Positions 29,222 to 51,798 are shown, numbered from the stretch's first letter. The stretch is 64,000 nt of DNA from Candidatus Latescibacterota bacterium (GCA_022821085.1 JAJEEG010000007.1:22916-86915); one strand, 5' to 3'. The notes: generated from the letters alone by a model not told the origin. Made by a program: numbers and translations.

Positions 29222-32200
29222 ATGGTTTCCTTCTTCCAAAAACACAGCAGTCGTGGGATCTTCCGACGCATTGCCGCATCACTCCCTAAACCAGGTGCTG
29301 ACGCGCTAACGGATCGCTGGCACGCCGTGTTGCTCGTTTTCCTGTCCCTATCCCTGTTTTTTCCGCTGGTGTTTGCCTGCGGTAGGGACAATCCCACACA
29401 GTCTCGTTCGGCGACCGCGTTCCGCATCGTGGTTACACCGGAGACGGCAGACCTATCCTCCACCGGTGAAACGTTACGTCTCAGCGCCCGAGTACTGGAC
29501 AAAAGCGACCGGGAGGTTCCCGCATCCCCGGTTTCCTGGCGCAGCAGCGACGATCAGGTGGTTTCAGTGAGTGCCGACGGCCTGGTCACCGCGGTCGGCG
29601 AGGGCAGCGCTATCGTAATCGCCATGGCCGGACAGAAGACGGCCCAGGCGCGGGTGACGGTGTCGGATCCCGTGCGGCGGACGTTGACTGCCCTGTACAA
29701 AACCACGGGCGGCGAGAACTGGAAGAATAGCGTAAACTGGTTGAGCGACGAGCCCGTTCATCAATGGTACGGTGTGTCGACGGTCTCGTCCTCGAGCACG
29801 CCAGAGGTGCGAGCCCGAGCCAGCGTGGCCGGCGTGGCACTGAATTTGCCTGACAACGGCCTTACCGGTCCGATCCCGCCTGAGTTGGGCGAAATGGTCT
29901 TCCTTCGAGTGCTGGATCTTTCCGACAACGGTCATACCGGTACTATTCCTCCTGAACTGGGCAACCTGGTCCGGCTCGAAGTGCTGGACCTGTCCAACAA
30001 TGCTTTGACCGGATCCGTCCCGTCTGAACTGGGTGACCTGCCGGTCCTGAAGTCACTCCTGCTACACGGCAACACCGGGATGTTCGGTCCCCTGCCTGAC
30101 TCGTTCGTCCGGCTTACGGGCCTGGAAACCCTGGAACTGACGGGCACGGGTCTGTGCGCGCCTTCGGACGCGGGATTCCAAAGGTGGCTTGCCGGGATCG
30201 CGACCCGGCGGGGCGTACAGACTTGCGGATCGGGGACGGACCAGGACCGGCAGACACTGATCGCCCTGTACGAGGCGACGGACGGACCGAACTGGTCGAA
30301 CAATGCCAACTGGCTGAGCCAGGCGCCACTGGACCGCTGGTACGGCGTCTCGGCGACATCATCCGGCCGCGTGCGCAACCTGCATCTTGCGAACAACGGG
30401 TTGTCCGGTCCAATTCCGACCGCGCTGGGCAATCTCACCGCGCTGGTGTCTCTGGATCTCTCGGACAACCGGTTGACGGGCGTCATCCCGCCGGCCCTGT
30501 TTACCCTGGCCAATCTCCAGACGCTGGACCTGTCCGGAAACCTGTTCAACCAATCTGAATCGGACGACCGCGACGCCCTGGTGGCGCTGTACAATGCCAC
30601 CGACGGCCCGAACTGGGTGTACAGTACGAACTGGCTAAGCCAGGCACCGCTGGGAGATTGGTACGGGGTAACAACCGACGATACGGGCAGGGTGACGCAT
30701 CTTCAGCTGTATACAGTAAATGGCGAGGAGCGCGTCGACGACGTCGCCGGCAAGACCAGCAACGGGCTGTCCGGCAACCTTCCCCCGGAACTGGGCAACC
30801 TGGGCAGCCTGCAGCGTCTGTCTCTCAACTATAATTCATTGACGGGTCCCATTCCACCAGAGCTGGGAAACCTGAGTAACCTGCGACGCCTGGACCTTGA
30901 CGTCAACCAGTTGTCGGGCAATATCCCTTCCGAACTGAGCCGCTTGAGTAATCTGGAAAGCCTGGACCTTCGCCGCAACCAGTTAACCGGTCCCGTTCCC
31001 TCCTGGCTGGGTAACCTGAGCAACCTGAAGAACTGGTTGGACCTTGGATACAATCAACTGACAGGTCCCATTCCTTCGGAATTGGGCCGCCTGAGTAATC
31101 TGACATTCCTGGCACTCCGCGGTAATCAGTTGTCCGGCAATATCCCTCCGGAACTGGGCCGCATGAGAGATTTGGAAAGCTTGTATCTCCAAAATAACAT
31201 GTTGTCAGGCGCATTACCCTCGTCGCTGAGTAGTCTCACCAACCTGCAATTCCTGTGGCTGGGCAACACGCAGTTGTGTGCGCCGACAGACGCTGTGTTC
31301 CAGGCATGGCTCGCCGGGATACCGTACACAAGTGGCGTCGTGAACTGCGGTCTGGTGGGGCCGGAGCCGGGAAACGACCGGGCCGCCCTGGTGGCGCTGT
31401 ACAATGCCACCGATGGCCCGAACTGGGTGTATAGCACGAACTGGCTGAGCAATGCGCCGCTGGGAGATTGGTACGGGGTAACAACCGACGATACGGGCAG
31501 GGTGACGCATCTTCAGCTTTACACCGTAAATGGCGAGGAGCGCGTCGACGATGTTGCGGGCAAGGCCAGCAACGGCCTGTCCGGCAACCTCCCACCTGAA
31601 CTGGGTAACCTGGGCAGCCTTCAGCGCCTGTCTCTCAACTACAACGCGTTGACAGGCCCCATTCCGCCGGAACTGGGCAACCTGGCGAACCTGCGACGCC
31701 TGGACCTTGACGTCAACCAGTTGTCGGGCAATATCCCTTCCGAACTGAGCCGACTGAGTAATCTGGAAAGTCTGGACCTTAGCCGCAACCAATTAACCGG
31801 TCCTGTTCCCTCCTGGCTGGGAAATCTGAGCAACCTGACGAATTGGTTGGTCCTTGCTGACAACAAACTGACCGGTCCCATTCCTTCCGAACTGGGCAAC
31901 CTGAGCAAACTTCTAAGCCTGAACGTTGCTGGCAACCAGTTGTCCGGCGCGTTGCCCTCTTCGCTGGGTAACCTCACCTACTTGCGATGGCTGCGGCTGA
32001 GCAACAACGAGTTGACTGGCGCGTTACCTCCGTCGCTGAGTAATCTCACCAACCTGCAATACCTATATCTAGACAACACGCAGTTGTGTGCGCCGACAGA
32101 CACCGTGTTCCAGGCATGGCTCGGTGGGATTCCAAACAAAAGTAGCGTTGTGAACTGCGGCCTGGTGGGGCCGGAGCCGTCGAACGATCGCGCCGCCCTT

Positions 32201-35200
32201 GTGGCGCTGTACAACGCCACCGACGGCCCGAACTGGACGAACAATACGAACTGGCTGACCGATAAGCCGATCGGAGAGTGGTACGGAGTAGACACCAATG
32301 CAACGGGTCGGGTGACCCGTTTGGACTTGAGGAACAACGCACTGTCGGGTTCGATCTCTTCCGAACTGGGTCAATTGAATCAACTGAGTAGGCTGTGGCT
32401 TGGAGACAACATGCTATCGGGCTCGATCCCACCAGAATTGGGCAATCTGAGCAACCTTCATGGCCTGTATCTTTATAATAACATGATAACCGGTTCTATT
32501 CCGTCCGAACTGGGCCAGTTGAAGAACCTGCTTGACCTGTGGTTATGGTCCAATCGATTAACTGGCTCTATTCCGTCTGAACTGGGTCAGTTAAACAGAC
32601 TGGTAAAACTGATTCTCAGCTACAACAGACTTGCAGGTAGGATTCCGTCCGGACTGGGTAACCTGACGAACCTGGAATGGCTCGAACTCGAGGACAATCA
32701 GTTGTCCGGCAATATCCCCTCATCGCTGGGCAACCTGAGCAATCTGGAGCGCATGGAGCTCAACGACAATACCGCTCTTTCTGGAATCCTGCCCGGCACA
32801 CTCTCTGGTCTCGGCAATCTGAACAAACTGAATCTTCAAGGGACGGGTCTGTGCGCGCCGACTGACACTGCATTTCAAGCATGGCTAAGTGGAATTTCTG
32901 ATAAACAGGGCGTAGTGAACTGTACCTCGCCGCCCCCACCGCCGGGCGACCCGGACCGTGACGTCCTGGTGGCGCTGTACAACGCTACGGACGGCCCGAA
33001 CTGGACGAGAAACAACAACTGGCTGAGTGACAGACCGATAGGAGAGTGGTATGGCGTGTCCACTAACGCGGATGGGCGGGTGGATAGTCTGAGTCTTTTC
33101 CTAAACGGGTTGTCAGGAGGCATCCCTCCAGCACTGGGCAACTTGAGCAATCTGACGTACTTGCAGCTCCAAGTCAACGCGTTGACCGGCAGAATCCCTT
33201 CGTCACTGGGTAACCTGAGCAATCTCGACAGGCTGATTCTCAACGACAATCAGTTGTCCGGCAGTATCCCTTCATCACTGGGCAACCTGAGCAATCTACA
33301 AGAGTTGAGTCTCAACAACAACTCGTTGTCCGGCAACCTTCCTGCGACGTTGGGCAACCTGAGCAATCTGAACTGGCTTATTCTCAACGAGAACGCGTTG
33401 TCTGGCAGTATTCCTTCGTCCCTGGGCAACCTGAGCAATCTGCGAGAACTGCGGCTTAACGACAATCAGATGTCCGGCAGCCTTCCTACAACCCTGGGCA
33501 ACCTGAGTAATCTGCGAGAATTGTGGCTTTACAATAACACCGCTCTTTCTGGTTCCCTGCCCGGTACACTTGCCGGTCTCGGTCGCCTCAACGAACTGCG
33601 GCTTCAAGGCACCGGTCTGTGCGCGCCGACTGACACTGCATTTCAAGCGTGGCTCAGCGGGATTCCGGTGAAATCGGGGGTTGTTGACTGTACTGTCATT
33701 TCAGGATCGGACGACCGCGACGTCTTGGTAGCACTGTACAACGCCACAGATGGCCCGAACTGGGTGAGAAACGACAACTGGCTAAGTGACAGACCGATCG
33801 GAGAGTGGTTTGGCGTGTCCACCAACGCTGCAGGTAGGGTGACGCGTCTCAGGTTATACACAATATCCGACGATGATACATACACCACCAACGGTTTGAC
33901 TGGCAGCATCCCACCGGTGCTGGGTAATCTGAGCTATCTGCAAGATCTGCGGCTTCACACCAACAAGTTGTCAGGCAGTATCCCGCCGGAGTTGGGCAAC
34001 CTGCACAATCTGACTCGGCTCGATCTTGGAGACAATCAGTTGTCAGGCAGTATACCGCCGGAGTTGGGCAACCTGAGCAGCCTGACATATCTTGGGCTTT
34101 ACTTCAATCAGTTGTCAGGCAGTATACCTTCGCAACTGGGTAACCTGACCAGCCTGACTGATCTTTCCCTTCGCGCCAACACTGGACTGTCAGGTCCTCT
34201 GCCCGACACTTTCACAGATCTTGAGAATCTCAACAACCTGGCTGTGGATGGCACGGGGTTGTGCGCGCCTACAGACACCGCATTTCAGTCGTGGCTCGGG
34301 AGGATCCAGGGAAGAGTGGTAGGCGTCAGTAACTGCGATTCGTCGCCCCCGGACGACCCGGACCGCGATGTCCTGGTGGCGCTTTACAATGCCACCGACG
34401 GCCCGAACTGGGCGAACAATACGAACTGGCTGAGTGATTCGCCAATCGGAGAGTGGAACGGCGTGACCACCGACGACACCGGACGGGTGACACATCTCTG
34501 GTTATCTGGGGAGATTGACGACGCTGGTACAGTAGTCAGTCGAGGTGGGTTATCTGGCAGAATTCCATCGTCCCTGGGTGATCTGACTAAGCTTCAATAC
34601 CTGGGCCTTCCTGGCAACGCATTATCGGGAAACATTCCATCGGCCCTGGGCAACCTGGAAAATTTACGTAGTCTGCAACTTTGGGACAACCAGTTGTCGG
34701 GCGCGATCCCGTCCGGCCTAGGCAACCTGAACAATCTTGTTTGGTTGCAACTCAGCGACAACAGTTTATCTGGTCCAATCCCGCCCGCCCTGGGCAACCT
34801 GAGCAACCTGACGAACTTGCAGCTTCAAGACAACGCGTTGACAGGCAACATTCCATCGGCCCTGGGCAATCTGACTAACCTGCGTACTATGGGTCTTTAC
34901 CGTAACCAGTTGTCAGGTACAGTTTCGTCGGAACTGGGCAACCTGAGCAATCTGCAAAGTCTGTGGTTGCACCAGAATGCTGCCTTGTCCGGTCCCCTGC
35001 CCGACTCATTCACTGATCTCGATGAACTTCGAAGCCTGAATCTGGATGGCACAGATTTGTGTGCGCCTTCAAATGATGTTTTCCAAACCTGGCTACAGGG
35101 GATCGGAAACAAGAGTGGCGTTGTGGACTGCGAACCAGACCCACCTGGTCCGCCTGGCCTCCGTGGCATGCCTGGCCCTCGTGGCCTGCCAGGCCCGCCA

Positions 35201-35986
35201 GGTCTTCAGGGCCCACCCGGTCCTCAGGGCCCTGAAGGCCCGCCAGGTGAACCTGGCCCACCTGGTCCGCCTGGCTATCGTGGCGATACTGGCCCACCTG
35301 GTCCTCAGGGCCCACCTGGTCCTCAGGGCCCAGCAGGCCCGCCAGGCTCGTCTAGTCGGGTGGTAGTACCAGAGATTTCTTCGGACGCCGCGTTCCAGGA
35401 TTGGCTCGAAGCGCTTTTCAAGGAGCGAGGCATCGTGACTTGCGGCGAGCCTGGTCCTCCTGGGCCACAAGGTCCGCGCGGGCCTCGTGGCCTACCTGGC
35501 CCTCGTGGCCCTCGCGGCCCGGCTGGTCCGAGGGGGGCAGCGGGTTCAAAGGGTGAGCCTGGTCCGCATGGTCGTCAGGGCCCAGATGGTCCTGATGGCC
35601 CTGAAGGCCCGCCTGGGTCTGAAGGCCCTCAAGGCCCTCCAGGTCCTCCAGGACCGTCAGCAAGGGTGATAGCATCAGAGGAAGGATGGGCATCGGACGC
35701 CGCGTTACAGGCGTGGCTTGAGGCGTTTTTCCAGGACAGTGGCGTCGTGAACTGCGGTGAACCTGGCCCGCAAGGTCCTCCGGGCCCTCCAGGTCCTCCT
35801 GGTCCTCAGGGTGTACCCGGTCCTCCTGGTCCTCCTGGTCCGGCTGGGCCTCAAGGTCCTCCTGGTGAACCTGGCCCGGAGGGTCCGGCTGGGCCTCAAG
35901 GTCCTCCTGGTGAACCTGGTCCACAGGGTCCGCAGGGTGAACCCGGACCACCAGGCCCTCCTGGACCACCTGGTGATTCTGGATAA
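29222..35986 (+). CDS. giant surface lipoprotein: Big_2 domain, eight plant-type LRR modules and three C-terminal collagen-like tracts
   Basis: 2254 aa. The signal and lipobox read ...[11 protein letters not shown]. The Big_2 segment is [25 protein letters not shown]...[21 protein letters not shown]. There are eight modules. Each has an N-cap ([31 protein letters not shown]), 24-residue LRRs (L..L.L..N.LSG.IP..LGNLSNL) and, except module 2, a C-cap ([26 protein letters not shown]). G-X-Y tracts lie from about 35141 to the end. Confidence 0.9.
30565..32190. repeat. two tandem 810-nt LRR modules (modules 3 and 4), nearly identical over their first ~530 nt
   Basis: By eye, 30565-31090 versus 31375-31900 align with only scattered substitutions. 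Both encode [87 protein letters not shown]. Confidence 0.8.
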
Positions 35987-41755: not shown

Positions 41756-43360
41756 TCAGGACAGGCGCACGAAGATGTACCAGAGCCCGATGGAGATGTA
41801 GGTCGCGGTGATGGCGACCATGATGATCCGGGTGAGGGGATGGGGTTTGGTCCACGCGGGGAAGGCCCGGGGAACGAGCACGTAGTTCAGGTAGATCAGT
41901 CCGGGACAGAAGAGCCCCATGGCCAGGAAGGCGATGACGCCCCGTATGATGAGCAGGTCCCCCGGCTGCGCCAGGGGCAGCGTGATCGTCGTCAGCAGCG
42001 TGAAGACCACGACGAAACCATAGTATAGCGTGCGGAAGTGGTACCGCCGCGCCCGTTTCACGTTGGCGTAGATGAAGTCGGCCTGCATGCGGGCGAATCC
42101 GTCGGTGGACTGCAGCCAGGCATCGCACAGAAACGCCGCGGCGACGATCAGGAAGAGGACCTTGCCGATGGCGCCCCAGCTGACCTCGAAGAAGGCGGAC
42201 TGCACCACCGCGATTTCCCAGCCCTCGGGAACGATGCCCTGCGGCTTCAGCAGGGCCCACGCCAGCCAGCACATGATGATGGTCGTAACCAGGTTCAGCG
42301 CGACGCCGAGGCCCGACTCGAGCTTCAGGTACCGCATGAACTTCCCGTAGTTTATCCGGTTGGCCTCGTTGTCCTCGAAGGCGTAACCCGTGGCCGAGAT
42401 GGCCTCCGGCGCGGTCCGCAGAGGGCTGGTGATACGCCCGATATAGGCCGACATGCCCACGCCCTTGTCCCGCATCCAGTAGGAGAGGAAGAGCTGGCCG
42501 AAGCCGCCGGCGCCGGCGAAGACGATGGCGGTGAGCACGGTGGACAGGTCCGCCGGGTCCCAGTTGGCGGGCCGGTGGTAGCCGGGCGTGAGCAGGACGC
42601 CGAAGAATTCGCCCGCCACATCCAGGACCGGCCGCTGGAAGACGGCGAAGGCGATCCCCACCATGGTGATGACGACCACGGCCATGGTGAGCCGTTCCAC
42701 GATCAGGTAGACCACCCGGCCCATGAACAGGGCGACCAGGTAGATGCCGATGGTCAGATAGGCCCAGAAGAGCGACTGGCCGCGGACCGTCCATCCATAG
42801 GGGAACCCGGTGAGCTCCGCCAGGGCGCCGCCGCCCGCCGACGCGTAGGCGCCGAACCAGATGTTCTCGAGGAAGACCCCGACCCAGATGGCCGACACGT
42901 ACCACTTCCCTACGCGGCTGAAGCCGGTCAGGGCCGTCTCGCCCGTCATGATCGTGTACCGGGCGATCTCCACGTTGACCCAGAACTGCATCAGGGCGGC
43001 CGGGATGAGCAGGCCGATGAAGGCCGCGCCGTACTTGGCGGTCAGGTAGGGCCACCAGATGAGCTCGCCGCTACCCTGGGCCAGCCCGGCCCAGACGATA
43101 CCGGGACCGACGTACTTCAGCATGCCGGCGAAGGTGGGCACGGCGGCCAGCTTCAGGGGCGAAAGCTTGCCGAGGGGGCGGGTGGTTTCGGAGGCGGGTC
43201 CTGCGGGCATGAAGTGGGATCCGAGAATTGGCATTGCTATACCGACTATGGCATATAGTCCGATCAACGCCGAAGACGAACGATCAGTCAAAAAACAGGG
43301 AAAGTTGAAGGATCCGGTCGAACCGGCATAGTACACGGGGGTGCGAGATAGTTCAAGCAC
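41756..43360 (-). CDS. Nramp-family (MntH-like) membrane transporter
   Basis: 534-aa maximal ORF. GPGIVWAGLAQGSGELIWWPY is Nramp-like and about 11 TM segments are apparent. The true start may be ATG 43234 or 43210. Confidence 0.7.
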   Translation of the reverse strand: MLELSRTPVYYAGSTGSFNFPCFLTDRSSSALIGLYAIVGIAMPILGSHFMPAGPASETTRPLGKLSPLKLAAVPTFAGMLKYVGPGIVWAGLAQGSGELIWWPYLTAKYGAAFIGLLIPAALMQFWVNVEIARYTIMTGETALTGFSRVGKWYVSAIWVGVFLENIWFGAYASAGGGALAELTGFPYGWTVRGQSLFWAYLTIGIYLVALFMGRVVYLIVERLTMAVVVITMVGIAFAVFQRPVLDVAGEFFGVLLTPGYHRPANWDPADLSTVLTAIVFAGAGGFGQLFLSYWMRDKGVGMSAYIGRITSPLRTAPEAISATGYAFEDNEANRINYGKFMRYLKLESGLGVALNLVTTIIMCWLAWALLKPQGIVPEGWEIAVVQSAFFEVSWGAIGKVLFLIVAAAFLCDAWLQSTDGFARMQADFIYANVKRARRYHFRTLYYGFVVVFTLLTTITLPLAQPGDLLIIRGVIAFLAMGLFCPGLIYLNYVLVPRAFPAWTKPHPLTRIIMVAITATYISIGLWYIFVRLS

Positions 43361-43499
43361 AAAAAGGAAAACATACTTGCCTGATTCTACAGGTTTCTCA
43401 AGGCCGGTTTCGCAGCCGGCCGCCGGACGAATGTAAAGCTGTAAATCCGTTGACTACCAACCAGTGCCCTGATAGCTTCCAGTTGAAGGAGATCATAAT

Positions 43500-43715
43500 A
43501 TGAACGAAAGAAAACCACATAGCTCCAACGATGAAGTAATGGTCGAAATCTACTACAAAGACAACAGTATCAAGAACCGGTTGGCCAGACTTGAAGCGTC
43601 AGATGATCACATCAGATACCTGATCGAAAGTAACGCAACCTATTTTCGGTGGATCATCGGCATTATTCTAGCTGCCTATATTTCTATTATGATCAAACTG
43701 GTTTTTATTCCATGA
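43500..43715 (+). CDS. small XhlA-like protein (coiled-coil followed by a C-terminal TM helix)
   Basis: 71 aa: NRLARLEASDDHIRYLIESNATYFRWIIGIILAAYISIMIKLVF. An AAGGAG SD lies 8 nt upstream. It sits in an AT-richer pocket. Confidence 0.5.
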   Translation: MNERKPHSSNDEVMVEIYYKDNSIKNRLARLEASDDHIRYLIESNATYFRWIIGIILAAYISIMIKLVFIP

Positions 43716-43725
43716 GGGATGGGTT

Positions 43726-43929
43726 ATGTCGAAGAAGAAAGGAAGGATTCTTGACGTAGACGTCGGCGAGCGTCTCAAAAGTGCGTTAATGGATGTTTTA
43801 AGCGACGAAGAGATCGTCGCATTGCGTATGGAAGTTGACGTTGAAGTCAAGAGTGGATATACCGATAAAGCGTGGTACGCTTGGAAGAGCCCGGTCCGTA
43901 CCCAAAGTGTCTCCTCCGGAAGCATATAG
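43726..43929 (+). CDS. hypothetical small protein
   Basis: 67-aa ORF with a GAGGGA SD 7 nt upstream, directly after the 43500 gene. I recognised no family. Confidence 0.3.
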   Translation: MSKKKGRILDVDVGERLKSALMDVLSDEEIVALRMEVDVEVKSGYTDKAWYAWKSPVRTQSVSSGSI

Positions 43930-43976
43930 CGAAACAACTTGCTCGCAACGCGACACACCCTGAAAGAGACTATGCC

Positions 43977-44825
43977 ATGATGGACTTCCCCATCGTAGAC
44001 ACCCACGTTCATCTCTGGGACCCGAATCACCTGAGGTACAGCTGGCTGGACGATATCCCCCTGCTGAACCAGCGGTACCTGCTGGAGGAATACCGGCAGG
44101 CCTGCGGAGCGGTCCAGGTGGAGCAGATGGTCTTCGTGCAATGCGAATGCGACGCCGGCCAGCACGTGCAGGAAGCGGAATGGGTTTCCGGACTTGCCCG
44201 GCAGGACGGCCGGATCCGCGGGATCGTGGCCAACGCGCCACTCGAGAGGGGCGGGGCAATCAACGCCGACCTCGAGGCGCTTGCCCGGATTCCCCTGGTC
44301 AAGGGCATCCGGCGCCTGCTGCAACCTGAATCCGTTGATTTCTGCCTGCAGCCCGGGTTCATCGAAGGCGTTCGCCTGCTGCCGTCCCACGGGCTGTCCT
44401 TCGACATCTGCATCTTCCACCCGCAGCTGGCGAACGTGATCGAGTTCGTCCGGCAGTGTCCCGACGTCTCCTTCATCCTGGACCATATCGGAAAGCCCGA
44501 CATCAAGAACCAGGTCTTCGACCCCTGGAAAGATGAACTGAGGATCCTGGCTGAAATGCCCAACGTATGCTGCAAGGTGTCGGGTCTGGTCACCGAGGCG
44601 GACATGGAACGGTGGACGCCCGAGGACCTGAAGCCCTATATCGACCACGTGATCGATTGTTTCGGCATCGACCGGGTCATGTACGGCGGGGACTGGCCGG
44701 TCGCCTTCCAGGCCACCGAGTATCCGCGCTGGGTGGAGACCCTGTCCTGGGCGACCGGCGGACTCTCGGACGCGGAACGGCGCAAGCTGTTCCGGGACAA
44801 CGCCATCTCCTTCTACCGGCTGTAA
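43977..44825 (+). CDS. amidohydrolase-2 family (TIM-barrel metal-dependent hydrolase)
   Basis: ORF 43872..44825. MMDFPIVDTHVHLWDP... is the classic HxH start. The end reads ...DRVMYGGDWP...NAISFYRL. ATG 43977 is preferred. Confidence 0.85.
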   Translation: MMDFPIVDTHVHLWDPNHLRYSWLDDIPLLNQRYLLEEYRQACGAVQVEQMVFVQCECDAGQHVQEAEWVSGLARQDGRIRGIVANAPLERGGAINADLEALARIPLVKGIRRLLQPESVDFCLQPGFIEGVRLLPSHGLSFDICIFHPQLANVIEFVRQCPDVSFILDHIGKPDIKNQVFDPWKDELRILAEMPNVCCKVSGLVTEADMERWTPEDLKPYIDHVIDCFGIDRVMYGGDWPVAFQATEYPRWVETLSWATGGLSDAERRKLFRDNAISFYRL

Positions 44826-44877
44826 CGGCCTCTGCCCATATGCGTCAGCAGCGCAGCAGCCCCGCCCGTCACGCAAT

Positions 44878-44928
44878 GTACCTCGCTGCCCGTACGTACC
44901 TCGCTGTCCGTACGTACCTCGCTGTCCG
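44878..44928. repeat. 18-nt tandem repeat, about 2.8 copies (gtacctcgctgYccgtac), intergenic
   Basis: Direct reading: tgtacctcgctgcccgtac gtacctcgctgtccgtac gtacctcgctgtccg. Confidence 0.8.
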
Positions 44929-44934
44929 AATTCC

Positions 44935-45771
44935 ATGACCCTCGCCGACCTGCGTAAAAAACTCCTGCCCGATGGCCCGGCGCTGGATATCCACGTACAT
45001 CCCCTGAACTGTTTCGGTTCCTATGGGGTTTCCTCTCCGGTCGAGGATGCGGATAGGCTTGTCGCCACCGCCCGCCGCTCCGGCGTGACCCGGATGTGCG
45101 TGTTCTCCCTGTACGAGACCACCCCCTACGAACCCACACCCGACCAGTGCCGGCAGGCCAACGATTACGTGCTGCGGATGCGCGACGCGGAGCCGGAGGC
45201 GATCCTGCCCTTCTGCTATGTCACGCCCGCGTTTCCGGACGAAGCCGTCGCCGAAATCGAGCGTTGCGTGGGCGGCCAGGCAATGGCCGGGGTCAAGCTC
45301 TGGGTGGCACGGAAGGCGACCGATCCCGGCCTCGACCCGATCATGGAAGCGGCCGTCGCGAAGGACGTCCCGGTGCTGCAGCACGCCTGGCTGAAGACCA
45401 CCGGTAACTTGCCCGGTGAGTCCACGCCCTTCGACGTGGCCGATCTCGCCCGCCGACATCCCCGGTCGAGGATCATCATGGCCCATCTCAACGGCGTGGG
45501 CTACCGCGGCATCGAAGCGATCGCCGACTTGCCGAACGTGGTCGTGGATACATCGGGCGGCGATCCGGAAAGCGGCATGGTCGAAGCGGCCGTCAGCAGG
45601 CTTGGCGCCCACCGGGTCGTCTACGGCTCGGACGCGCCCATCCGGCACTTCGGCGTCACGATGAACAAGGTCCTGGGCGCGGACATTATGGACATCGACA
45701 AACGCGCGATCCTGTGGGACAACGCGTTGCGGATATTGAAGTTGATCGGAAAATCGGGAGATTCGCTGTGA
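44935..45771 (+). CDS. amidohydrolase family protein
   Basis: 278 aa. DIHVHPL... is the HxH-like start, followed by ...IIMAHLNG...VVYGSDAP. Confidence 0.75.
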   Translation: MTLADLRKKLLPDGPALDIHVHPLNCFGSYGVSSPVEDADRLVATARRSGVTRMCVFSLYETTPYEPTPDQCRQANDYVLRMRDAEPEAILPFCYVTPAFPDEAVAEIERCVGGQAMAGVKLWVARKATDPGLDPIMEAAVAKDVPVLQHAWLKTTGNLPGESTPFDVADLARRHPRSRIIMAHLNGVGYRGIEAIADLPNVVVDTSGGDPESGMVEAAVSRLGAHRVVYGSDAPIRHFGVTMNKVLGADIMDIDKRAILWDNALRILKLIGKSGDSL

Positions 45772-46526
45772 TCATTGACGTCAACGCCTGGACCGGACCG
45801 TGGCCAGCATTGGTCAACGTGCCGCACGACGTCGCTTCGGTACGGGCCTCACTGCGCGAATACGGTGTCGAACGCATCTTCATGGCGCCGCTTGCGGCCG
45901 CGTGGAGCGCCAACCCGCATCTCTGCAACCCGGTCGTCTATGAAGCGGCGTCCGAGTTCGAGGATATCAGCCCCGTACCGGTCATCGACCCGACGTTGCC
46001 GACCTGGCCTGAAGAGCTGGAGAAGGCGGCGAGACATCGTGCCGTCCGCATGATCAAGCTGCTGCCGGGTTATGGAGGGTATGACCTGGCCGCGGCGGAT
46101 GAACTGTTCGAAGAGGCGGTACGGGCGAACCTGGCCGCGATGGTCCAGATCCGTATTGATGACCCGCGGCGGCATCATCCACTGGCGATGGTGCCCGATG
46201 TGCCGGCCAGGGACGTGGTGGAAGCAGCGAAGCATCATCCCGACCTGAAACTGGTCATCGGCGGGGCGAGTGCGGCTGCTTTGAGAGAATGCGCGGCGCA
46301 AGTCCGCGAACTGCCCGGTCTTTATGCGGATACTTCCCAGGTAGACGGGGTGGACGGCGTGAAGATGCTGGTGGAGAAAGGCCTTGGAAACAAACTGCTC
46401 TTCGGATCCCACGCCCCGGTCTTCATGCCGGCGGCGGCCATGGCGCGGGTGCTAAACGATCTTTCGGATGATAAGGCAATGCAGGTTTTCAGCGATAATT
46501 CCAAGGGGCTGCTTGGGCTGCCTTGA
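45768..46526 (+). CDS. amidohydrolase-related protein
   Basis: ORF 45714..46526. GTG 45768 overlaps the upstream stop (GTGA). The protein reads VIIDVNAWTGPWP...LLFGSHAPVF. Confidence 0.65.
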   Translation: MIIDVNAWTGPWPALVNVPHDVASVRASLREYGVERIFMAPLAAAWSANPHLCNPVVYEAASEFEDISPVPVIDPTLPTWPEELEKAARHRAVRMIKLLPGYGGYDLAAADELFEEAVRANLAAMVQIRIDDPRRHHPLAMVPDVPARDVVEAAKHHPDLKLVIGGASAAALRECAAQVRELPGLYADTSQVDGVDGVKMLVEKGLGNKLLFGSHAPVFMPAAAMARVLNDLSDDKAMQVFSDNSKGLLGLP

Positions 46527-46738
46527 AGAAACCAGTAGATTCTCCAGATGGAAATTCCAGTACGCACGATTGGCAAACAACATCATGATGGATTGACTGC
46601 TTCAGCGTGTTGAGACCAATTGAAACGTTCTTAACTATTCCCAAATAAAGGATTTGGCACTTAATTAGGTGACATCTGATACGGTGATATTCGAATAACC
46701 TGTCGACAGACGCTTAATCCAGTCGACAATACACTACC

Positions 46739-46765
46739 TTTGACACATGCTTTCTCCCAATAATA
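46739..46765 (+). promoter_or_regulatory. possible promoter of the ATPase-PIN-ligase operon
   Basis: TTGACA lies at 46739-46744, followed by TAATAC 15 nt downstream (or ATACAT at 17 nt). A GGGAGGG SD at 46791-46797 precedes ATG 46805. Confidence 0.3.
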
Positions 46766-46804
46766 CATGTGATGAGGAAGTAACACATTTGGGAGGGTAT
46801 ACCC

Positions 46805-48208
46805 ATGTTTAACAGGCTACGAATTCAGAACTTCAAGGGCTGGAAGGACACCGGCAATATACGTATGGCTCCAATATCCCTGTTCTTCGGAGCAAACAGC
46901 TCGGGAAAGTCAAGCATCGGCCAATTTCTGATGATGTTGAAGCAAACGGTTGATTCACCAGACAGAAAGGCGGTTTTCAATCCAGGGGGCAGAAATGCTG
47001 CAGTACAGCTGGGCTCCTATCAGGAAATGGTCTATCGCCGTGACCCAAAATCCAAGATCGAATTCGAATACAGTTGGTCAATTTCGGAACAACTGAGGTT
47101 CAGAGATCCTTTGTCAGGCCAGGTGTATTCCGGTGACGGTCTTTTTTTCTGTGCCAAGGCTGGCTTGAGCGATGACGATCAACAGACCTTGCTGCTCGAC
47201 CACCTGAAATATGAACTGATGCAAGATAACCAAGCTACCGTGACAATCGGAATGGAGCGCAGATCCAACACCAAGTCTGAATATAGAGTTGAATTCACAA
47301 AACATACACTGAAACGTAAGCGGGGACGTGGTTGGTCGCCAGGCGCGCCGGTTAGATTCTATGGATTCCCTGATGAGGTCGTGGCTTACTACCAAAACGC
47401 GGAGTTTGTTCAGACCCTTAACCTGCAGCATGAGCAACTGTTCAGATCACTCTACTATCTCGGACCGCTGCGCACCAAGGCGGAACGATTGTATTCCTGG
47501 CCTGGCGTAGAACCTGAGAGCGTTGGCTATGACGGAGAGAATACCGTTGCGGCAATCCTTGCGGCACGTAACCGCAAAATCGGTCTGGGATATAGACAGA
47601 GGGTAAAACCTTTCGAGGAAGTCATAGCCCAGAAGCTCAAAGAAATGGGATTGATTGAGGAGTTCAAAGTCAATCAGATTTCCGATCAACGACAGGATTA
47701 CGAGGTTAAAGTTCGCACTAAGGGCTCAATTGACTGGGTCGATCTACCGGATGTAGGCTTTGGTATTTCTCAAGTATTGCCGGTGTTGGTGCAGTGTTTC
47801 TATGCACCGGCAGGCTCAATCATCCTTATGGAACAGCCCGAGATACATCTACATCCAAACGCGCAAACGGCGCTGGCTGACGTGATGATTGACGTCATAA
47901 ACTCTAAAGAAAATGGGAAGGACAGGAATATCCAGTTGGTAATCGAGACTCATTCGGAACATTTCCTTCGTCGCCTGCAGCGTCGCATCGCTGAGGACAC
48001 AGTTCCAAAGTCGAAAGTATCGGCCTACTTCGCCAATATCAGCAAGACGCCTGCAACCCTGGATCCGCTGCAATTCGACTCCTTTGGCAACATCCTCAAT
48101 TGGCCGGAAAACTTTTTCGGCGCCGAGATGGACGACATCACCGAACATGCCATGGCGGCAATGACGAAGCGAATGCGAGAAGCCGACAATGCAGAGGTTT
48201 CCCAATGA
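46805..48208 (+). CDS. ABC/AAA-type ATPase (AAA_21-like with DUF3696-like C-terminus)
   Basis: 467 aa. The N-terminus is MFNRLRIQNFKGWKD. Walker A is FGANSSGKSSIGQ, Walker B and after is IILMEQPEIHLHP, and the H-loop context is VIETHSEHFLRRL. The C-terminal end reads ...LNWPENFFG. Confidence 0.8.
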   Translation: MFNRLRIQNFKGWKDTGNIRMAPISLFFGANSSGKSSIGQFLMMLKQTVDSPDRKAVFNPGGRNAAVQLGSYQEMVYRRDPKSKIEFEYSWSISEQLRFRDPLSGQVYSGDGLFFCAKAGLSDDDQQTLLLDHLKYELMQDNQATVTIGMERRSNTKSEYRVEFTKHTLKRKRGRGWSPGAPVRFYGFPDEVVAYYQNAEFVQTLNLQHEQLFRSLYYLGPLRTKAERLYSWPGVEPESVGYDGENTVAAILAARNRKIGLGYRQRVKPFEEVIAQKLKEMGLIEEFKVNQISDQRQDYEVKVRTKGSIDWVDLPDVGFGISQVLPVLVQCFYAPAGSIILMEQPEIHLHPNAQTALADVMIDVINSKENGKDRNIQLVIETHSEHFLRRLQRRIAEDTVPKSKVSAYFANISKTPATLDPLQFDSFGNILNWPENFFGAEMDDITEHAMAAMTKRMREADNAEVSQ

Positions 48209-48735
48209 GCCTGCCGATGAAGTGCCTGGTAGACACCAATGTGCCAAAGACCGCCAATCTTGCAACACAGCCAGACCCACAATCCGACGTGCCTGATTCG
48301 TGTGTGGTGGCATGTATCGAAGCAATCAGGCACGTTATCGACAAGCGCAGCCTGATCATCGACGCAGGTGATGAGATCTTCGATGAATATCGCCGGCAGT
48401 TATCAATGAGGGGGCAACCCGGTGTAGGAGATCGTTTTATGAAGTGGGTTCATGACAACCGATGGAGCCTGCATGCGTCGCAAAGAGTAAGCATCACCAG
48501 GAATAACGATTCCTATGAAGAGTTTCCGGTGCACGAGGGATTGGATCAATTCGACAAGTCGGACCGGAAGTTTGTCGCAGCGTCCAATGCCCACCCCGAT
48601 AAACCGCCCATTTTGCAGGCGACCGACACCAAGTGGTGGGGATGGAAGGACGCGCTAGCGGAGGTCGGCATAGACGTCGATTTCATTTGTCGTTCGTACG
48701 TTATATCCAAGCAAACTGAGATGGCGGACACATGA
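48205..48735 (+). CDS. PIN-like nuclease domain protein (predicted)
   Basis: In-frame ATG 48205 within ORF 48100..48735 overlaps the ATPase stop (ATGA). The protein reads MSLPMKCLVDTNVP...IIDAGDEIFDEY...FDKSDRKFVAASNA...ILQATDTKWW. The acidic residues are spaced as in a PIN fold. Confidence 0.5.
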   Translation: MSLPMKCLVDTNVPKTANLATQPDPQSDVPDSCVVACIEAIRHVIDKRSLIIDAGDEIFDEYRRQLSMRGQPGVGDRFMKWVHDNRWSLHASQRVSITRNNDSYEEFPVHEGLDQFDKSDRKFVAASNAHPDKPPILQATDTKWWGWKDALAEVGIDVDFICRSYVISKQTEMADT

Positions 48736-49448
48736 AGGACGGTTTCGTCAAGTTTCCATCGACGCCTCATCTTGCGACACTGCCGGGAGCTGACCTCAGA
48801 AGCGATAAGGTGCTGACAGAAACTGAACGCGATGCATTCTTGAAGAATGAGCTTCTTGTCGAAGAAAAGGTGGACGGAGCCAATCTGGGGATTTCTTTTG
48901 ATTCAGAGGGGAATTTACGGGTCCAGAACCGGGGTGAGTATTTACGTCTTCCGGGTTCAGACTCAGGCCAGTGGAAAAAACTGGGAGATTGGTTAGTTAA
49001 TCGAATTGATACATTGTTTGAATCCCTGACCGATCGTTACATCCTTTTTGGCGAATGGTGTTATGCCCAGCACTTGATTTACTACGAACGCTTGCCCGAT
49101 TGGTTCCTTGGATATGATATTTACGATAAACTGTCCGGGCGTTTCCTTTCTTCACATCGGCGTAATCAAATTTGCGGGAAGATACGCATCACCCGTGTTC
49201 CAGTCATTGCTCGCGGGCGTTTTCTTCTTCCGGACCTCGTGAAACTCCTAACGCGATCACAACTTACCGATCACCCTGCAGAAGGTCTCTACCTTCGATA
49301 CGATCAGGACAAATGGCTTGAGCAACGGGCCAAGTTGGTTCGTCCGGAGTTTATACGATCAATCGAGAAGCATTGGTCGCGAACACCCATCAGGCCTAAC
49401 CGCTTGCTCCTCGAGATAGACAACGCGTCGGGATTGCTGGGTGTTTGA
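48732..49448 (+). CDS. ATP-dependent RNA ligase family protein (nucleotidyltransferase KxDG)
   Basis: 238 aa. ATG overlaps the upstream stop (ATGA). Motif I is EEKVDGANLGI. ILFGEWCYAQH, AEGLYLRYD and RAKLVRPEF correspond to ligase motifs III-V. Confidence 0.75.
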   Translation: MKDGFVKFPSTPHLATLPGADLRSDKVLTETERDAFLKNELLVEEKVDGANLGISFDSEGNLRVQNRGEYLRLPGSDSGQWKKLGDWLVNRIDTLFESLTDRYILFGEWCYAQHLIYYERLPDWFLGYDIYDKLSGRFLSSHRRNQICGKIRITRVPVIARGRFLLPDLVKLLTRSQLTDHPAEGLYLRYDQDKWLEQRAKLVRPEFIRSIEKHWSRTPIRPNRLLLEIDNASGLLGV

Positions 49449-49501
49449 TCCGGCGAATTGAACTCAAATGCTTCCAAGGTGCCTCCTGAGTAACACTCAC
49501 C

Positions 49502-50170
49502 TCAGTTCCCCAGTACGGTCCGGATCCATTGGCCGATCTGTTCGATTTCCTGCGGACACACCTCGTGGGCCATGGGATACGCGTGGTATTCGGGAACCAT
49601 GCCCAATCGCCTGAGGGATTCGGCGGCGTCGCGGGCCAGGGATTCATTCAGCATCGGGTCCATCGATCCGTGGCAGACCAATACGGGAAGCCCGGATTGA
49701 GCCGGATGCACGACGACGCTGTCGGCCGTGGGAAAGTAGGTGGACAGGGCGATGATGCCTCCGAGCCGGTACTGGCACGACAGCCCGGCTTCGAAACTGA
49801 CCGCGCCACCCTGGGAGAAGCCCGCCAGCAGGATCCGTTCGCTCGGTACGCCCCGATCGATCTCCCGTCGCAACAACGCCTGCACTTTGCCGGCGGAAGC
49901 GCGTAGCCCGGCCGCGTCGATACGACGGGCATCGCCCAGTTCCATGATGTCGTACCATGCGGGCATAACCATCCCCTGGTTGATCGTCACCGGGATGGAT
50001 GGCGCCGACGGAAAAACGAAGCGGACCGCGTAGACCGCCGGCAGCCCCAGTTGCGGAACAATCGGCACGAAATCGCCTCCGTCCGCCCCCAGACCATGAA
50101 GCCAGATGATGGATGCGTCGACCTCGGCCGAATTGTTGGATACACGTTCAATAACGGGGAGATCGGTCAT
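49502..50170 (-). CDS. phospholipase/carboxylesterase family alpha/beta hydrolase
   Basis: ORF 49502..50371. MTDLPV... at 50170 overlaps the higA stop. The protein has IIWLHGLGADGGDF, the nucleophile elbow GFSQGG, and CHGSMDPML...MAHEV. Confidence 0.85.
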   Translation of the reverse strand: MTDLPVIERVSNNSAEVDASIIWLHGLGADGGDFVPIVPQLGLPAVYAVRFVFPSAPSIPVTINQGMVMPAWYDIMELGDARRIDAAGLRASAGKVQALLRREIDRGVPSERILLAGFSQGGAVSFEAGLSCQYRLGGIIALSTYFPTADSVVVHPAQSGLPVLVCHGSMDPMLNESLARDAAESLRRLGMVPEYHAYPMAHEVCPQEIEQIGQWIRTVLGN

Positions 50171-50418
50171 GTGGCCTGCGCCTGTGCGACGTCGTAAGCC
50201 GCCTGCAGACGTATCCATGTCTCTGTGGTCGAGCCAAAAGCCTTTGCCAGTCGGACCGCCATGTCGCCGGAAATCCGCGAACGGCAATTCACCAGATTGG
50301 AAAGCGCCTGACGGCTGACGCCCAACACCTTCGCGCCTTCGGTCACACTGAGGTCGAGTGGTTCCAGGCATGAAACGCGCACCACCTTGCCGGGATGTGG
50401 TGGGTTCTTCATCTGCAT
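50167..50418 (-). CDS. higA: HigA-family antitoxin (XRE helix-turn-helix)
   Basis: ORF 50167..50490. MQMKNPPHPGKVVRVSCLEPLDLSVTEGAKVLGVSRQALSNLVNCRSRISGDMAVRLAKAFGSTTETWIRLQAAYD is typical of HigA. ATG 50418 is preferred. Confidence 0.8.
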   Translation of the reverse strand: MQMKNPPHPGKVVRVSCLEPLDLSVTEGAKVLGVSRQALSNLVNCRSRISGDMAVRLAKAFGSTTETWIRLQAAYDVAQAQAT

Positions 50419-50516
50419 CGTGGTCCTTCTTTCTCTTCTATCTTTCACCAAATATCGAACTGGTAGTAGACATGATTTTGCAGTTATCACAACAGGTCTG
50501 ACTTGTAAGGGTCAGG

Positions 50517-50617
50517 CTATTCTTCAAAATGATCGGAATGAGAATCTGTTCGGACTAAATACAGTTTGTCTCCTTAACATCCTTCGTAAACCGCGATGTA
50601 CGTACAGGGGTCAGCAT
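50517..50617 (-). pseudogene. RelE/YafQ-type toxin remnant (internal deletion plus frameshift)
   Basis: My own reverse-strand translation gives ATG(50617) MLTPVRTSRFTKDVKETNCI-stop, then, shifted by one frame, VRTDSHSDHFEE-stop. The N-terminal ..F.KDVK and C-terminal RTGSHSDLF-like motifs of the family are retained, but only about 100 nt remain. Confidence 0.5.
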
Positions 50618-50725
50618 TTAAATGTCGAGATCTCGGAATAAGTCCTCGGCATTTTCAAAACGCTGACCCTTGCCTTCTTCCAGCTCTTTCGTTGCCTTGA
50701 TGGTTGCAGGGCGAGGTACACGGAT
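50618..50725 (-). pseudogene. RelB/DinJ-type antitoxin C-terminal remnant
   Basis: The tail of ORF 50618..50974 reads IRVPRPATIKATKELEEGKGQRFENAEDLFRDLDI-stop. Its TAA is directly followed by the ATG of the toxin remnant. The N-terminal part is missing, and the upstream sequence belongs to the PP-loop gene. Confidence 0.4.
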
Positions 50726-50757
50726 CGCGCTAGGCGATCGTTGCTCGTCTGCCAAGC

Positions 50758-51798
50758 CTAAATCCGCCACGTCTCCAGCACAGACTCCTCGACCGGGGAA
50801 GGTTCGAGGATGCGCTCGGCATCTGCGTAGCGGCAGGTCACCGGCGTACCGGGATCGGCCTTCGATCCCGCGTACCGCACGGTCATGCCCGCGATCTGCC
50901 GAAGGTCGTCGTCGGTGGGATGGCCTTCGACCAGGGTGGTCGGCCCCGTGACGTCCTTCGTTTCCAATCTCCACCGGCCCGGAGTGTAGCGCTCCAGGAA
51001 CTTGTTCTCCCCTTCCTCTCTGCCCATCACCACTTTCACATCGGGTTTGACGCGGAAGTGGCGGCCGATCTTGAGGAGCATCACGTCGTCCATGGTCAGA
51101 TTCTCCTTGCCCTCGTGATCGAAGAAGTCGAGGATGCGACGGCCGAAATTCTCATCGGTCAGGTAGCAGCAGCCCCCCGCGGGCGAAGGATAGTCCTCGA
51201 TGCCGTACTCCTCGGCCAGTTCCATCTGCTTCTGGCGGGAACGCCCCTGAATATCACCCAGTTTCTCACGGTCCACCCACCCCTCCTGTTCCGGTACGGT
51301 GGGCGGCAGGCGCTTCGCGGAAAGGGGCCGCAGCAGCAGGCCGTCCAGTTCGGCGTCACGGTCGATGACGTTCATGGGCTGGCGGCGCTGGGACATGGGC
51401 CGCTGGCCGAGGACCTCGCCGGTGAACATGAACTGGGCGCCGATCTCGTCCATGTACTGCCGGGCGCGGCGGAACATGAAGATGCGGCAGTCGATACATG
51501 GATTCACGGTTTTACCGTAACCGTACTTCGGATCGGTCAGGACTTTCAGGTAGTCCGGACCGGAGATGTCGATCATCTCGACGGGCAGGTCCAGCTTGGC
51601 GCCGGCCTGCAGGGCCTCGTTGCGCACCGGTTTCTTGCGCTTCCGCGTCTTGGACCTGCGGTTGTGCTCGACCACGCAGAAGCCGGTGTAGAAGGTGAGC
51701 CCCTGTATTTCGATGCCCTGCCTCATCAGCATGGCGGCCGCGATCGTGCTGTCCAGTCCGCCGGACAGCAATCCGACTGCTTTCACGGGTTTGGACAT
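50758..51798 (-). CDS. PP-loop ATP pyrophosphatase (ThiI/MnmA-like tRNA sulfurtransferase family)
   Basis: ORF 50758..51948. ATG 51798 has a GGGGGA SD. The PP-loop is MSKPVKAVGLLSGGLDSTIAA, the Cys motif is NPCIDCRIFMF, and FTGEVLGQRPMSQ follows. Confidence 0.7.
   Translation of the reverse strand: MSKPVKAVGLLSGGLDSTIAAAMLMRQGIEIQGLTFYTGFCVVEHNRRSKTRKRKKPVRNEALQAGAKLDLPVEMIDISGPDYLKVLTDPKYGYGKTVNPCIDCRIFMFRRARQYMDEIGAQFMFTGEVLGQRPMSQRRQPMNVIDRDAELDGLLLRPLSAKRLPPTVPEQEGWVDREKLGDIQGRSRQKQMELAEEYGIEDYPSPAGGCCYLTDENFGRRILDFFDHEGKENLTMDDVMLLKIGRHFRVKPDVKVVMGREEGENKFLERYTPGRWRLETKDVTGPTTLVEGHPTDDDLRQIAGMTVRYAGSKADPGTPVTCRYADAERILEPSPVEESVLETWRI

Follow-up and report, generated by a model that had tools for sequence, protein, structure and literature searches.

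The operon described here occupies positions 46805–49448 of a 64,000-nucleotide stretch of DNA from a Candidatus Latescibacterota bacterium (GCA_022821085.1, JAJEEG010000007.1:22916-86915), which is called the window throughout. Its three genes encode an ATP-binding cassette (ABC) ATPase, a PIN-like protein, and an ATP-dependent RNA ligase. On the evidence of its sequence, the locus belongs to the HEC-03 anti-phage family and has the three-gene form that is common there. The ligase is a real and conserved part of the system, and the trio is inherited as one unit. The best explanation, to which we give a probability of about 0.5, is that a PIN RNase would be released by the ATPase and that the ligase would reseal the resulting RNA breaks as a catalytic antidote.

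The ATPase–PIN pair of the HEC-03 family

Gene 1 (46805–48208, plus strand) codes for a 467-residue ATPase that is presumably the sensor and scaffold of the system. Gene 2 (48205–48735, plus strand) codes for a 176-residue PIN-like nuclease, the presumed RNase effector, and gene 3 (48732–49448, plus strand) for a 238-residue RNA ligase. Consecutive reading frames are joined by ATGA start/stop overlaps at 48205–48208 (genes 1 and 2) and 48732–48735 (genes 2 and 3). The protein of gene 2 begins at the ATG that overlaps the stop codon of gene 1 (N-terminus MSLPMKCLVDTNVP). Because each gene has hundreds to thousands of homologues, all three are taken to be real genes and not chance open reading frames (ORFs).

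Gene 1 encodes the HEC-03 ABC ATPase with its C-terminal DUF3696 helix. Residues 1–459 match positions 1–455 of the 458 positions in the PADLOC model of this protein (PDLC04148, E = 1.3e-126, 421 bits), and the Pfam families AAA_15 (1.3e-24), AAA_21 (7.5e-19), and DUF3696 (4.1e-7) are recognized as well. The Walker A motif (GANSSGKSS), the Walker B motif (MEQPEIHLHP), and the H-loop motif (ETHSEH) are conserved in 103 homologues. The PADLOC model for NsnB of the Menshen system also matches gene 1 (1.5e-57), and the hidden Markov models of AriA and GajA match it weakly, partially, and at the level of the ATPase.

The protein of gene 2 matches the corresponding HEC-03 PIN model (PDLC04147, E = 3.5e-29, 100 bits, residues 5–165 on model positions 1–154 of 159), so that both genes match their HEC-03 models over the full length in the PADLOC check that had been proposed from the sequence alone. 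A library-wide HMMER search returned 1281 relatives. In an alignment of 116 diverse relatives, which are ∼30–60% identical to the window protein, D10, D53, Y62, and D120 are invariant, and conservation reaches 90% or more at T11, N12, E61, D117, and D141. Pfam gives no match for the window protein itself. Among the 116 relatives, 29 match Pfam PIN_3 weakly (best 5e-4) and three match PIN, and no other family is matched by more than two of them. In an hhalign comparison with a three-sequence VapC alignment, only the first strand (DTNV) was aligned. The top match of the PIN profile search, P0241, was rejected as a repeat-protein artefact. By these signs, gene 2 is assigned to the PIN family with an intact acidic site, and it is likely to be active, because the acidic residues are invariant or nearly so and relatives match PIN_3.

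HEC-03 (Hma-embedded candidate 3) was described as a pair of an ABC ATPase and a PIN protein (Payne et al. 2024, bioRxiv 10.1101/2024.01.29.577857) and is included in PADLOC-DB v2. The pair that was tested originates from Pseudomonas cichorii ATCC 10857 and consisted of two cloned genes. It protects Escherichia coli against phage, both genes being required, and its PIN protein was described as VapC-like in structure; the expressing strains were plated without isopropyl β-D-thiogalactopyranoside (IPTG) owing to apparent toxicity (Payne et al. 2024). In the window operon, these two protein families recur in identical order and coupling, an ATPase with DUF3696 followed by a PIN protein. HEC-03, however, was defined and tested as two genes, whereas the window form adds a conserved RNA ligase. 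This ligase matched no relevant model in PADLOC-DB. It is not mentioned in the main text of the HEC-03 paper, and in the searched text of the supplement the word occurs only in tables of Pfam domains. The PADLOC model HEC-03B (458 positions) matches the ATPase and HEC-03A (159 positions) the PIN protein, the reverse of the text of Payne et al., which uses A for the ATPase and B for the PIN protein.

An earlier description probably concerns the family of the window operon. For operons that encode an ATPase and a ligase together with two nucleases, one of the PIN_3 type and one of the HNH type, a conflict system has been proposed in which the ligase neutralizes the nucleases (Burroughs & Aravind 2016, NAR 44:8525, as summarized in Table 1 of Matelska et al. 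2017, PMC5499597). The PIN_3-like nuclease, the ligase, and the ATPase of that summary are all found in the window operon, and four-gene relatives with an HNH gene match it as a whole; the window operon itself lacks the HNH gene and holds three of the four components. We believe "ATP-grasp" to be the Burroughs and Aravind group's name for the nucleotidyltransferase fold of the ligase. The ligase of the conflict system is listed under this term by Matelska et al. (PMC5499597, Table 1). No link between the conflict system and HEC-03 was found in the literature. The sequence-only reading had regarded the trio as a new configuration that corresponds to no named system. This claim has to be given up, as the ATPase and the PIN protein are HEC-03 and a conflict system with a ligase had already been proposed, as far as the summary in PMC5499597 conveys it. 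What is added here is the link between HEC-03 and that system, the finding that most loci of the sampled clades include the ligase, and the placement of the tested form in a small clade whose sole sampled relative is without a ligase.

The ligase as an inherited component

The association of the three genes was counted in a collection with one genome per species, in which only non-redundant loci with sufficient room downstream (PIN-seeded) or upstream (ligase-seeded) were considered. Of 149 related loci from two distant clades, 129 (87%) have the ligase gene immediately after the PIN gene. In the clade of the window, seeded with the window PIN protein, the ligase is directly downstream in 62/73 loci and the ATPase directly upstream in all 73. 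The distant clade was seeded with a PIN protein 35–40% identical to that of the window, and the ligase is present in 67 of its 76 loci. Across both clades, the ATPase gene directly precedes the PIN gene in 148/149 loci. The count from the opposite side agrees, as 63 of 68 ligase-seeded loci carry the ATPase and PIN genes upstream. The remaining five have no intact pair (four with neither gene, one with an ATPase fragment only). Co-occurrence of the trio in other genomes, named as a test in the sequence-only reading, is thus found from the PIN side and from the ligase side.

Over 145 non-redundant colinear trios, the pairwise-identity matrices of the PIN protein and the ligase are correlated with r = 0.91; the correlation between the ATPase and the PIN protein is equally high, and none of 200 label permutations reached 0.91. 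The reading frames overlap or closely abut. The host phyla comprise Desulfobacterota, Pseudomonadota, Chlorobiota, Verrucomicrobiota (including Akkermansia glycaniphila), Synergistota, Nitrospirota, Acidobacteriota, Chloroflexota, Planctomycetota, Spirochaetota, and Cyanobacteria. A metagenomic relative with 37% identity shows the same three genes by precomputed Pfam labels. On an Aeromonas caviae plasmid (NZ_AP021928.1, 88678–91306), RefSeq annotates the trio as a DUF3696 domain-containing protein, a hypothetical protein, and an RNA ligase family protein, the last being 41% identical to the window ligase; this trio adjoins insertion sequence (IS) elements and a Hok/Gef gene. Adjacency from both sides, depth across clades, and co-divergence together place the ligase within the system.

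The ligase is missing from ∼13% of the sampled loci, so two-gene variants exist. The only relative of the P. cichorii HEC-03 in the genome collection (L248) is such a two-gene locus. The tested P. cichorii locus itself was not recovered by an exact-match search, and its clade is sampled through this one relative. The validated HEC-03 therefore appears to represent a small clade without a ligase. A fourth gene, encoding an HNH_2 endonuclease, follows the ligase in 10 of 67 distant-clade loci (including L171, L176, L180, L204, and L237). An HNH gene directly after the PIN gene was seen in one genome locus and on the Acinetobacter soli plasmid pAS843-2 (L167, 7526–8284). The plasmid locus has no ligase, and its ATPase appears split into two ORFs. 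The idea taken from this plasmid, that HNH replaces the ligase as a general rule, was rejected, as HNH stands after the ligase ten times in the census and in its place once.

Sequence and fold of the ligase

Gene 3 encodes an ATP-dependent RNA ligase with intact catalytic motifs. It matches Pfam RNA_ligase (PF09414) with 2e-30 and 106.6 bits against a cut-off of 27. Motif I is the KxDG of EEKVDGAN, with K46 as the predicted AMP-accepting lysine; motif III is FGEW (E108), motif IV EGLYLR (E184, G185, R189), and motif V contains K201. These residues and D129 are invariant or nearly so in alignments of 34 and 101 homologues. The structure model is of moderate quality (predicted local distance difference test, pLDDT, 67). 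A Foldseek search with it placed Rnl3, T4 Rnl2, and Naegleria Rnl5 at the top (E = 7e-6 to 5e-5, probability 1.0), ahead of any DNA ligase. The ligase is likely active, because motifs I–V are invariant in 101 sequences and the modelled fold matches RNA ligases before DNA ligases.

The nearest family in sequence-profile searches is Rnl3, with matches that cover the catalytic domain only, and many members of the ligase family are labelled "ATP-dependent RNA circularization protein" by the Joint Genome Institute (JGI). Membership in Rnl3 (TIGR01209) was rejected, since the protein scores 14 bits against a cut-off of 136.9 and has 238 residues against ∼380, which amount to the nucleotidyltransferase domain only. 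It lacks the dimerization and flanking domains of Rnl3 and has neither an oligonucleotide-binding (OB) domain nor a DNA-binding domain. Judged by these comparisons, gene 3 is related to Rnl3 and is no member of it. An end-healing enzyme (kinase or phosphatase) or a Hen1 methylase is not encoded in the operon. Although the model has low confidence in the C-terminal tail of the ligase (residues 214–238, 49371–49448), three residues of this tail (H214, W215, and N223) do not vary among 101 homologues; the tail may be a docking or RNA-binding motif outside of the nucleotidyltransferase core.

The domain and motif calls of the sequence-only reading hold up in these searches. Its AAA_15/AAA_21/DUF3696 ATPase and its RNA ligase domain are recovered by Pfam, the ATPase and ligase motifs that it listed are present and conserved (103 and 101 homologues), and the PIN-like acidic residues that it noticed in gene 2 correspond to the conserved D10, E61, D117/D120, and D141 of a protein matched by the HEC-03 PIN model.

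Proposed mechanism and alternatives

By homology to HEC-03, the system is expected to defend against phage. In the proposed mechanism, the ATPase would keep the PIN nuclease in check, probably by means of its DUF3696 helix, in the way predicted for NsnB and NsnC of Menshen. Infection would be sensed by the ATPase, and the PIN nuclease would subsequently be released or activated. It would then cut an essential RNA, most likely tRNA or rRNA, and translation would stop. In the last and less certain step, the ligase would reseal the 3′-OH/5′-phosphate breaks as a catalytic antidote. By mopping up leaky cleavage it could set a threshold for activation, and it could permit recovery once the infection is aborted, in analogy to DarG and DarT.

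Metal-dependent PIN nucleases leave 3′-OH and 5′-phosphate ends, and ATP-dependent RNA ligases join such ends without end-healing. Because the ends match and no kinase or phosphatase is encoded, the PIN product would be the natural substrate of the ligase. The role of antidote is favored because two-gene forms still defend, which makes the ligase dispensable for killing, because the two-gene form is apparently toxic, and because neutralization is the published proposal. The two-gene variants and the tested two-gene system fit a ligase that acts as an accessory antidote.

Several points weigh against this explanation. The end chemistry is that of metal-dependent PIN nucleases in general and is assumed for the family in question. 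The nucleotidyltransferase domain of T4 Rnl2 alone is not known to complete ligation, and the window ligase consists of a nucleotidyltransferase domain only. Repair of the damage by a host ligase would benefit the phage too, except where the ligase loses out in competition or is inactivated during infection, and the target of HEC-03 could be DNA. Independent checks of the PIN fold of gene 2 gave no confirmation: an AlphaFold2 model built from 35 close homologues is poor (pLDDT 46), nine of the top 17 Foldseek matches of this low-pLDDT model are PIN or PIN-like at a nonsignificant E of about 1, and PIN profiles from alignments of 35 and of 116 sequences had no match in the PDB. Between the tested P. 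cichorii PIN protein and that of the window, identity is 32%, and the former starts with VETNV instead of VDTNV. All experimental support comes from this two-gene form and none from a ligase-bearing member. Finally, Rnl3 ligases circularize RNA, and at least one of them mainly adenylates its substrate (PMC12153264), which also fits a role of the ligase as co-effector.

Such a co-effector is the main rival to repair, and computation alone cannot separate the two. The ligase would make the RNA damage irreversible by circularizing or 5′-adenylating the fragments, or by resealing a tRNA after nucleotide excision, so that the repair enzymes of the phage are foiled. The proposal is tentative and on balance doubtful. 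It draws on the Rnl3 ligases as closest solved relatives by profile and fold, on the circularization label that JGI gives to many family members, and on the consideration that a repairing ligase seems contrary to abortive infection. A precedent is RloC, which excises the wobble nucleotide and thereby causes repair-resistant damage (PMC2610378). The two-gene systems speak against it, as they protect without a ligase, which is therefore not needed for the kill. The window ligase also lacks the Rnl3-specific domains, length, and TIGR01209 score, and the only published proposal, as summarized in PMC5499597, is neutralization. A stricter version, which is unlikely, has the PIN nuclease and the ligase working together in one cut-and-rejoin reaction for which the ligase is indispensable as a catalytic partner; a specific RNA would be rewritten, and the lesion would be invisible to, or irreparable by, phage repair enzymes. 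For example, anticodon-loop nucleotides would be excised and the tRNA resealed, or fragments would be circularized or adenylated.

The remaining alternatives change the target or the purpose of the operon. It is quite unlikely that the operon is not primarily anti-phage and instead forms a selfish toxin–antidote (addiction) module, or one that cleaves and repairs RNA in response to stress, its spread being explained by mobility. The solitary position of the trio among metabolic genes, its foreign G+C signature, the plasmid in Aeromonas with its IS elements and Hok/Gef gene, and the discussion of HARP and Rnl3 as a possible toxin–antitoxin pair (PMC12153264) would be accommodated by such a module. 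The homology to a demonstrated anti-phage system, the quarter to third of relatives within Hma or BREX loci, and the recurrence of ABC ATPase–nuclease pairs as a defence architecture would not. An action on DNA is improbable, in which the PIN protein would nick or cut invading DNA like FEN-like members, the ligase would seal host nicks, and the HNH DNase would add to this in the four-gene variants. HNH_2 follows the ligase in the 10/67 distant-clade loci, and DNA nucleases occur within the PIN-like superfamily (PMC5499597). The weak Pfam matches of the family, however, are the VapC-type PIN_3 and PIN, which are RNases, the similarity in structure is likewise to VapC (Payne et al. 2024), and the ligase matches Pfam RNA_ligase, is closer in fold to RNA than to DNA ligases, and has no OB or DNA-binding domain. 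Most improbable is a functionally independent ligase that travels with HEC-03 as a hitch-hiker or as a single-gene defence. Five ligase-seeded loci without an intact ATPase–PIN pair, one of them a lone ligase between a PglX-like methylase and PglZ (BREX), and scattered pairs that are intact but have lost the ligase are what it would predict, but it conflicts with the 87% adjacency in two distant clades, with the pair in 63/68 ligase-seeded loci, with the overlapping or closely abutting reading frames, and with the co-divergence with the PIN protein (r = 0.91).

Acquisition and surroundings of the operon

The trio is a horizontally acquired operon, as is evident from its low G+C content against the flanks. 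It amounts to 0.50 in the trio and to 0.63 both in the amidohydrolase genes and in the esterase gene, and the third codon position shows the same difference (0.50–0.62 in the trio, 0.70–0.83 in the flanking genes). Here, too, the sequence-only reading was accurate: the low G+C content and the acquisition that it suggested, the three ORFs with their coordinates and ATGA couplings, and the AT-rich spacer of ∼280 nucleotides were all found as described. In a scan of the adjoining genes, three amidohydrolase genes were found upstream and a carboxylesterase gene downstream. In the window, the trio thus stands alone among metabolic genes, outside any defence island or Hma. The trio occupies the corresponding site in the syntenic relative L001 (∼91% nucleotide identity), and acquisition is therefore older than the split between the two. 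There are no tRNA genes within the window, no convincing direct or inverted repeats around the trio, no integrases among the scanned genes on either side (which are metabolic), and no match to an Rfam family in 43000–51000. Scans for promoters and terminators remained at the level of shuffled sequence, including a promoter-like match at 46703–46730 that was not above shuffle expectation. With none of these signals present, no insertion mechanism was found.

The upstream spacer (46527–46804, plus strand) is 278 nucleotides long with a G+C content of 0.41 and probably holds a promoter or operator. It contains a perfect TTGACA at 46740–46745, a perfect palindrome CTGTCGACAG at 46700–46709, and the related CAGTCGACAA at 46720–46729. 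This segment (46700–46745) may be an operator and a promoter. A Shine–Dalgarno sequence (GGGAGGG, 46791–46797) lies seven nucleotides before the ATG of gene 1. The operon itself encodes no regulator gene.

In other genomes, the operon is often found in a defence context. An N6_N4 DNA methylase gene is the upstream neighbor in 18/75 loci. A helicase gene is the downstream neighbor in 19/75 (Helicase_C; with an SNF2-related domain in 14 and ResIII in 18), and PglZ in 7/75. These neighbors mark an embedding in Hma or BREX loci, the source context of the HEC-03 discovery, and about one quarter to one third of the relatives sit within such loci. Relatives of the window operon therefore often share this embedding with HEC-03, whereas the window operon itself is not in Hma. 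A defence role had been suggested from the sequence alone, and it gains support from the homology to HEC-03 and from this context in relatives. One two-gene relative is followed by a DUF499 ATPase, which we take to be the Hma ATPase. In locus L082 (2511–8794), a lone ligase that is 70% identical to that of the window lies between a PglX-like methylase and the PglZ of a BREX locus, with no ATPase or PIN gene nearby. In L248 (4593–8432), the relative of the tested P. cichorii HEC-03 adjoins a three-gene cluster on the opposite strand that encodes a 589-residue SMC/ABC-like ATPase, a 158-residue protein, and a 344-residue protein. Judged by eye, this cluster looks like a Lamassu-type or ABC-3C-type system.

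Some further features were observed in the vicinity of the operon. A second islet of low G+C content (0.44) lies at 43361–43929 and contains ORFs of 71 residues (43500–43715) and 67 residues (43726–43929), neither of which matches Pfam; the region shows ∼82% nucleotide identity in L001. An orphan HigA-like HTH_3 gene (50167–50490, minus strand) has no intact toxin partner at its site (50167–50757). At the same intergenic spot, L001 (7938–10638) instead carries a VapC-like PIN gene, a small partner gene, and a GIY-YIG-like ORF. The different cargo at one spot suggests a hot spot for small mobile modules. Downstream of its esterase gene, L001 also contains a 68-bp segment (8151–8218) that copies, at 91% identity, the 3′ end of the third amidohydrolase gene (46405–46472 in the window), and a second copy of this segment was not found in the window. 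A very long ORF of 2254 residues (29222–35986, plus strand) is located ∼11 kb upstream of the trio.

Significance

For the genome of the window, one acquired defence operon is an ordinary finding. The broader point is that defence annotation tools treat HEC-03 as a two-gene system, yet 87% of the pairs sampled from two distant clades carry an intact, co-evolving ligase. If the ligase reverses the damage of the PIN nuclease, a widespread immune system would contain a built-in RNA repair, and it could serve as a model for limiting self-harm or for recovery in abortive infection. If it fixes the damage in place, this would be a new effector logic. A cut-and-rejoin reaction would amount to host-encoded, repair-resistant RNA damage, and the predominant form of HEC-03 would work differently from the tested two-gene form. 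The role of the ligase is a good experimental question of moderate rather than high surprise, and cultured carriers are at hand in Aeromonas caviae (plasmid), Serratia quinivorans, Halomonas sp. HK25, and Akkermansia glycaniphila.

Comparison with known systems

The Menshen system is related through its NsnB, an ABC ATPase with a DUF3696 helix that is predicted to bind the PIN-like domain of its partner through this helix (PMC12065111). In Menshen, the PIN-like domain (NsnC) no longer has its catalytic residues and forms a fusion protein with a separate nuclease, and no ligase is present. The window PIN protein, in contrast, stands alone, retains its acidic residues, and is accompanied by a ligase. 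Membership in Menshen was rejected, as the operon has no NsnA (ParB-DUF262) sensor and no C-terminal effector fused to the PIN protein, its neighbors being amidohydrolase and esterase genes. VapBC was rejected as well, because the gene upstream of the PIN gene encodes a 467-residue ATPase and not a small VapB antitoxin.

A PIN-like RNase that is genomically coupled to an Rnl3-related ligase, as in the window, is also known from HARP (a PIN_5 protein-only RNase P), which co-occurs with an Rnl3 ligase and for which a toxin–antidote reading has been discussed (PMC12153264). There, however, the PIN family is a different one, the Rnl3 is full-length, an ATPase is absent, the genes are mostly divergent, and the proposed role is RNA processing rather than defence.

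The reversal of a toxin lesion by a co-encoded partner or by RNA repair is a concept shared with DarTG, RtcB/RtcA, and Pnkp-Hen1-Rnl. DarG reverses the damage caused by DarT. The enzymes of these systems are unrelated to those of the window, which has no kinase, phosphatase, or Hen1. RNA repair has been linked to ribotoxins (PMC4411300, PMC7790460).

An ABC ATPase sensor combined with a nuclease effector is likewise found in PARIS (AriA/AriB), P2 OLD, PrrC, and RloC, which target tRNA and lead to abortive infection. Their effectors are Toprim or HEPN-like, whereas the effector in the window is a PIN protein. Membership in PARIS, Gabija, or OLD was rejected, since none of the three proteins contains a Toprim domain and the AriA and GajA matches are partial and restricted to the ATPase. 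In the case of PrrC, the ligase belongs to the phage, and T4 uses Pnkp and Rnl1 against the host. In the window operon, the ligase is part of the host system itself, and if this ligase repairs, the operon would be the host-side mirror of the conflict between T4 Pnkp/Rnl1 and PrrC.

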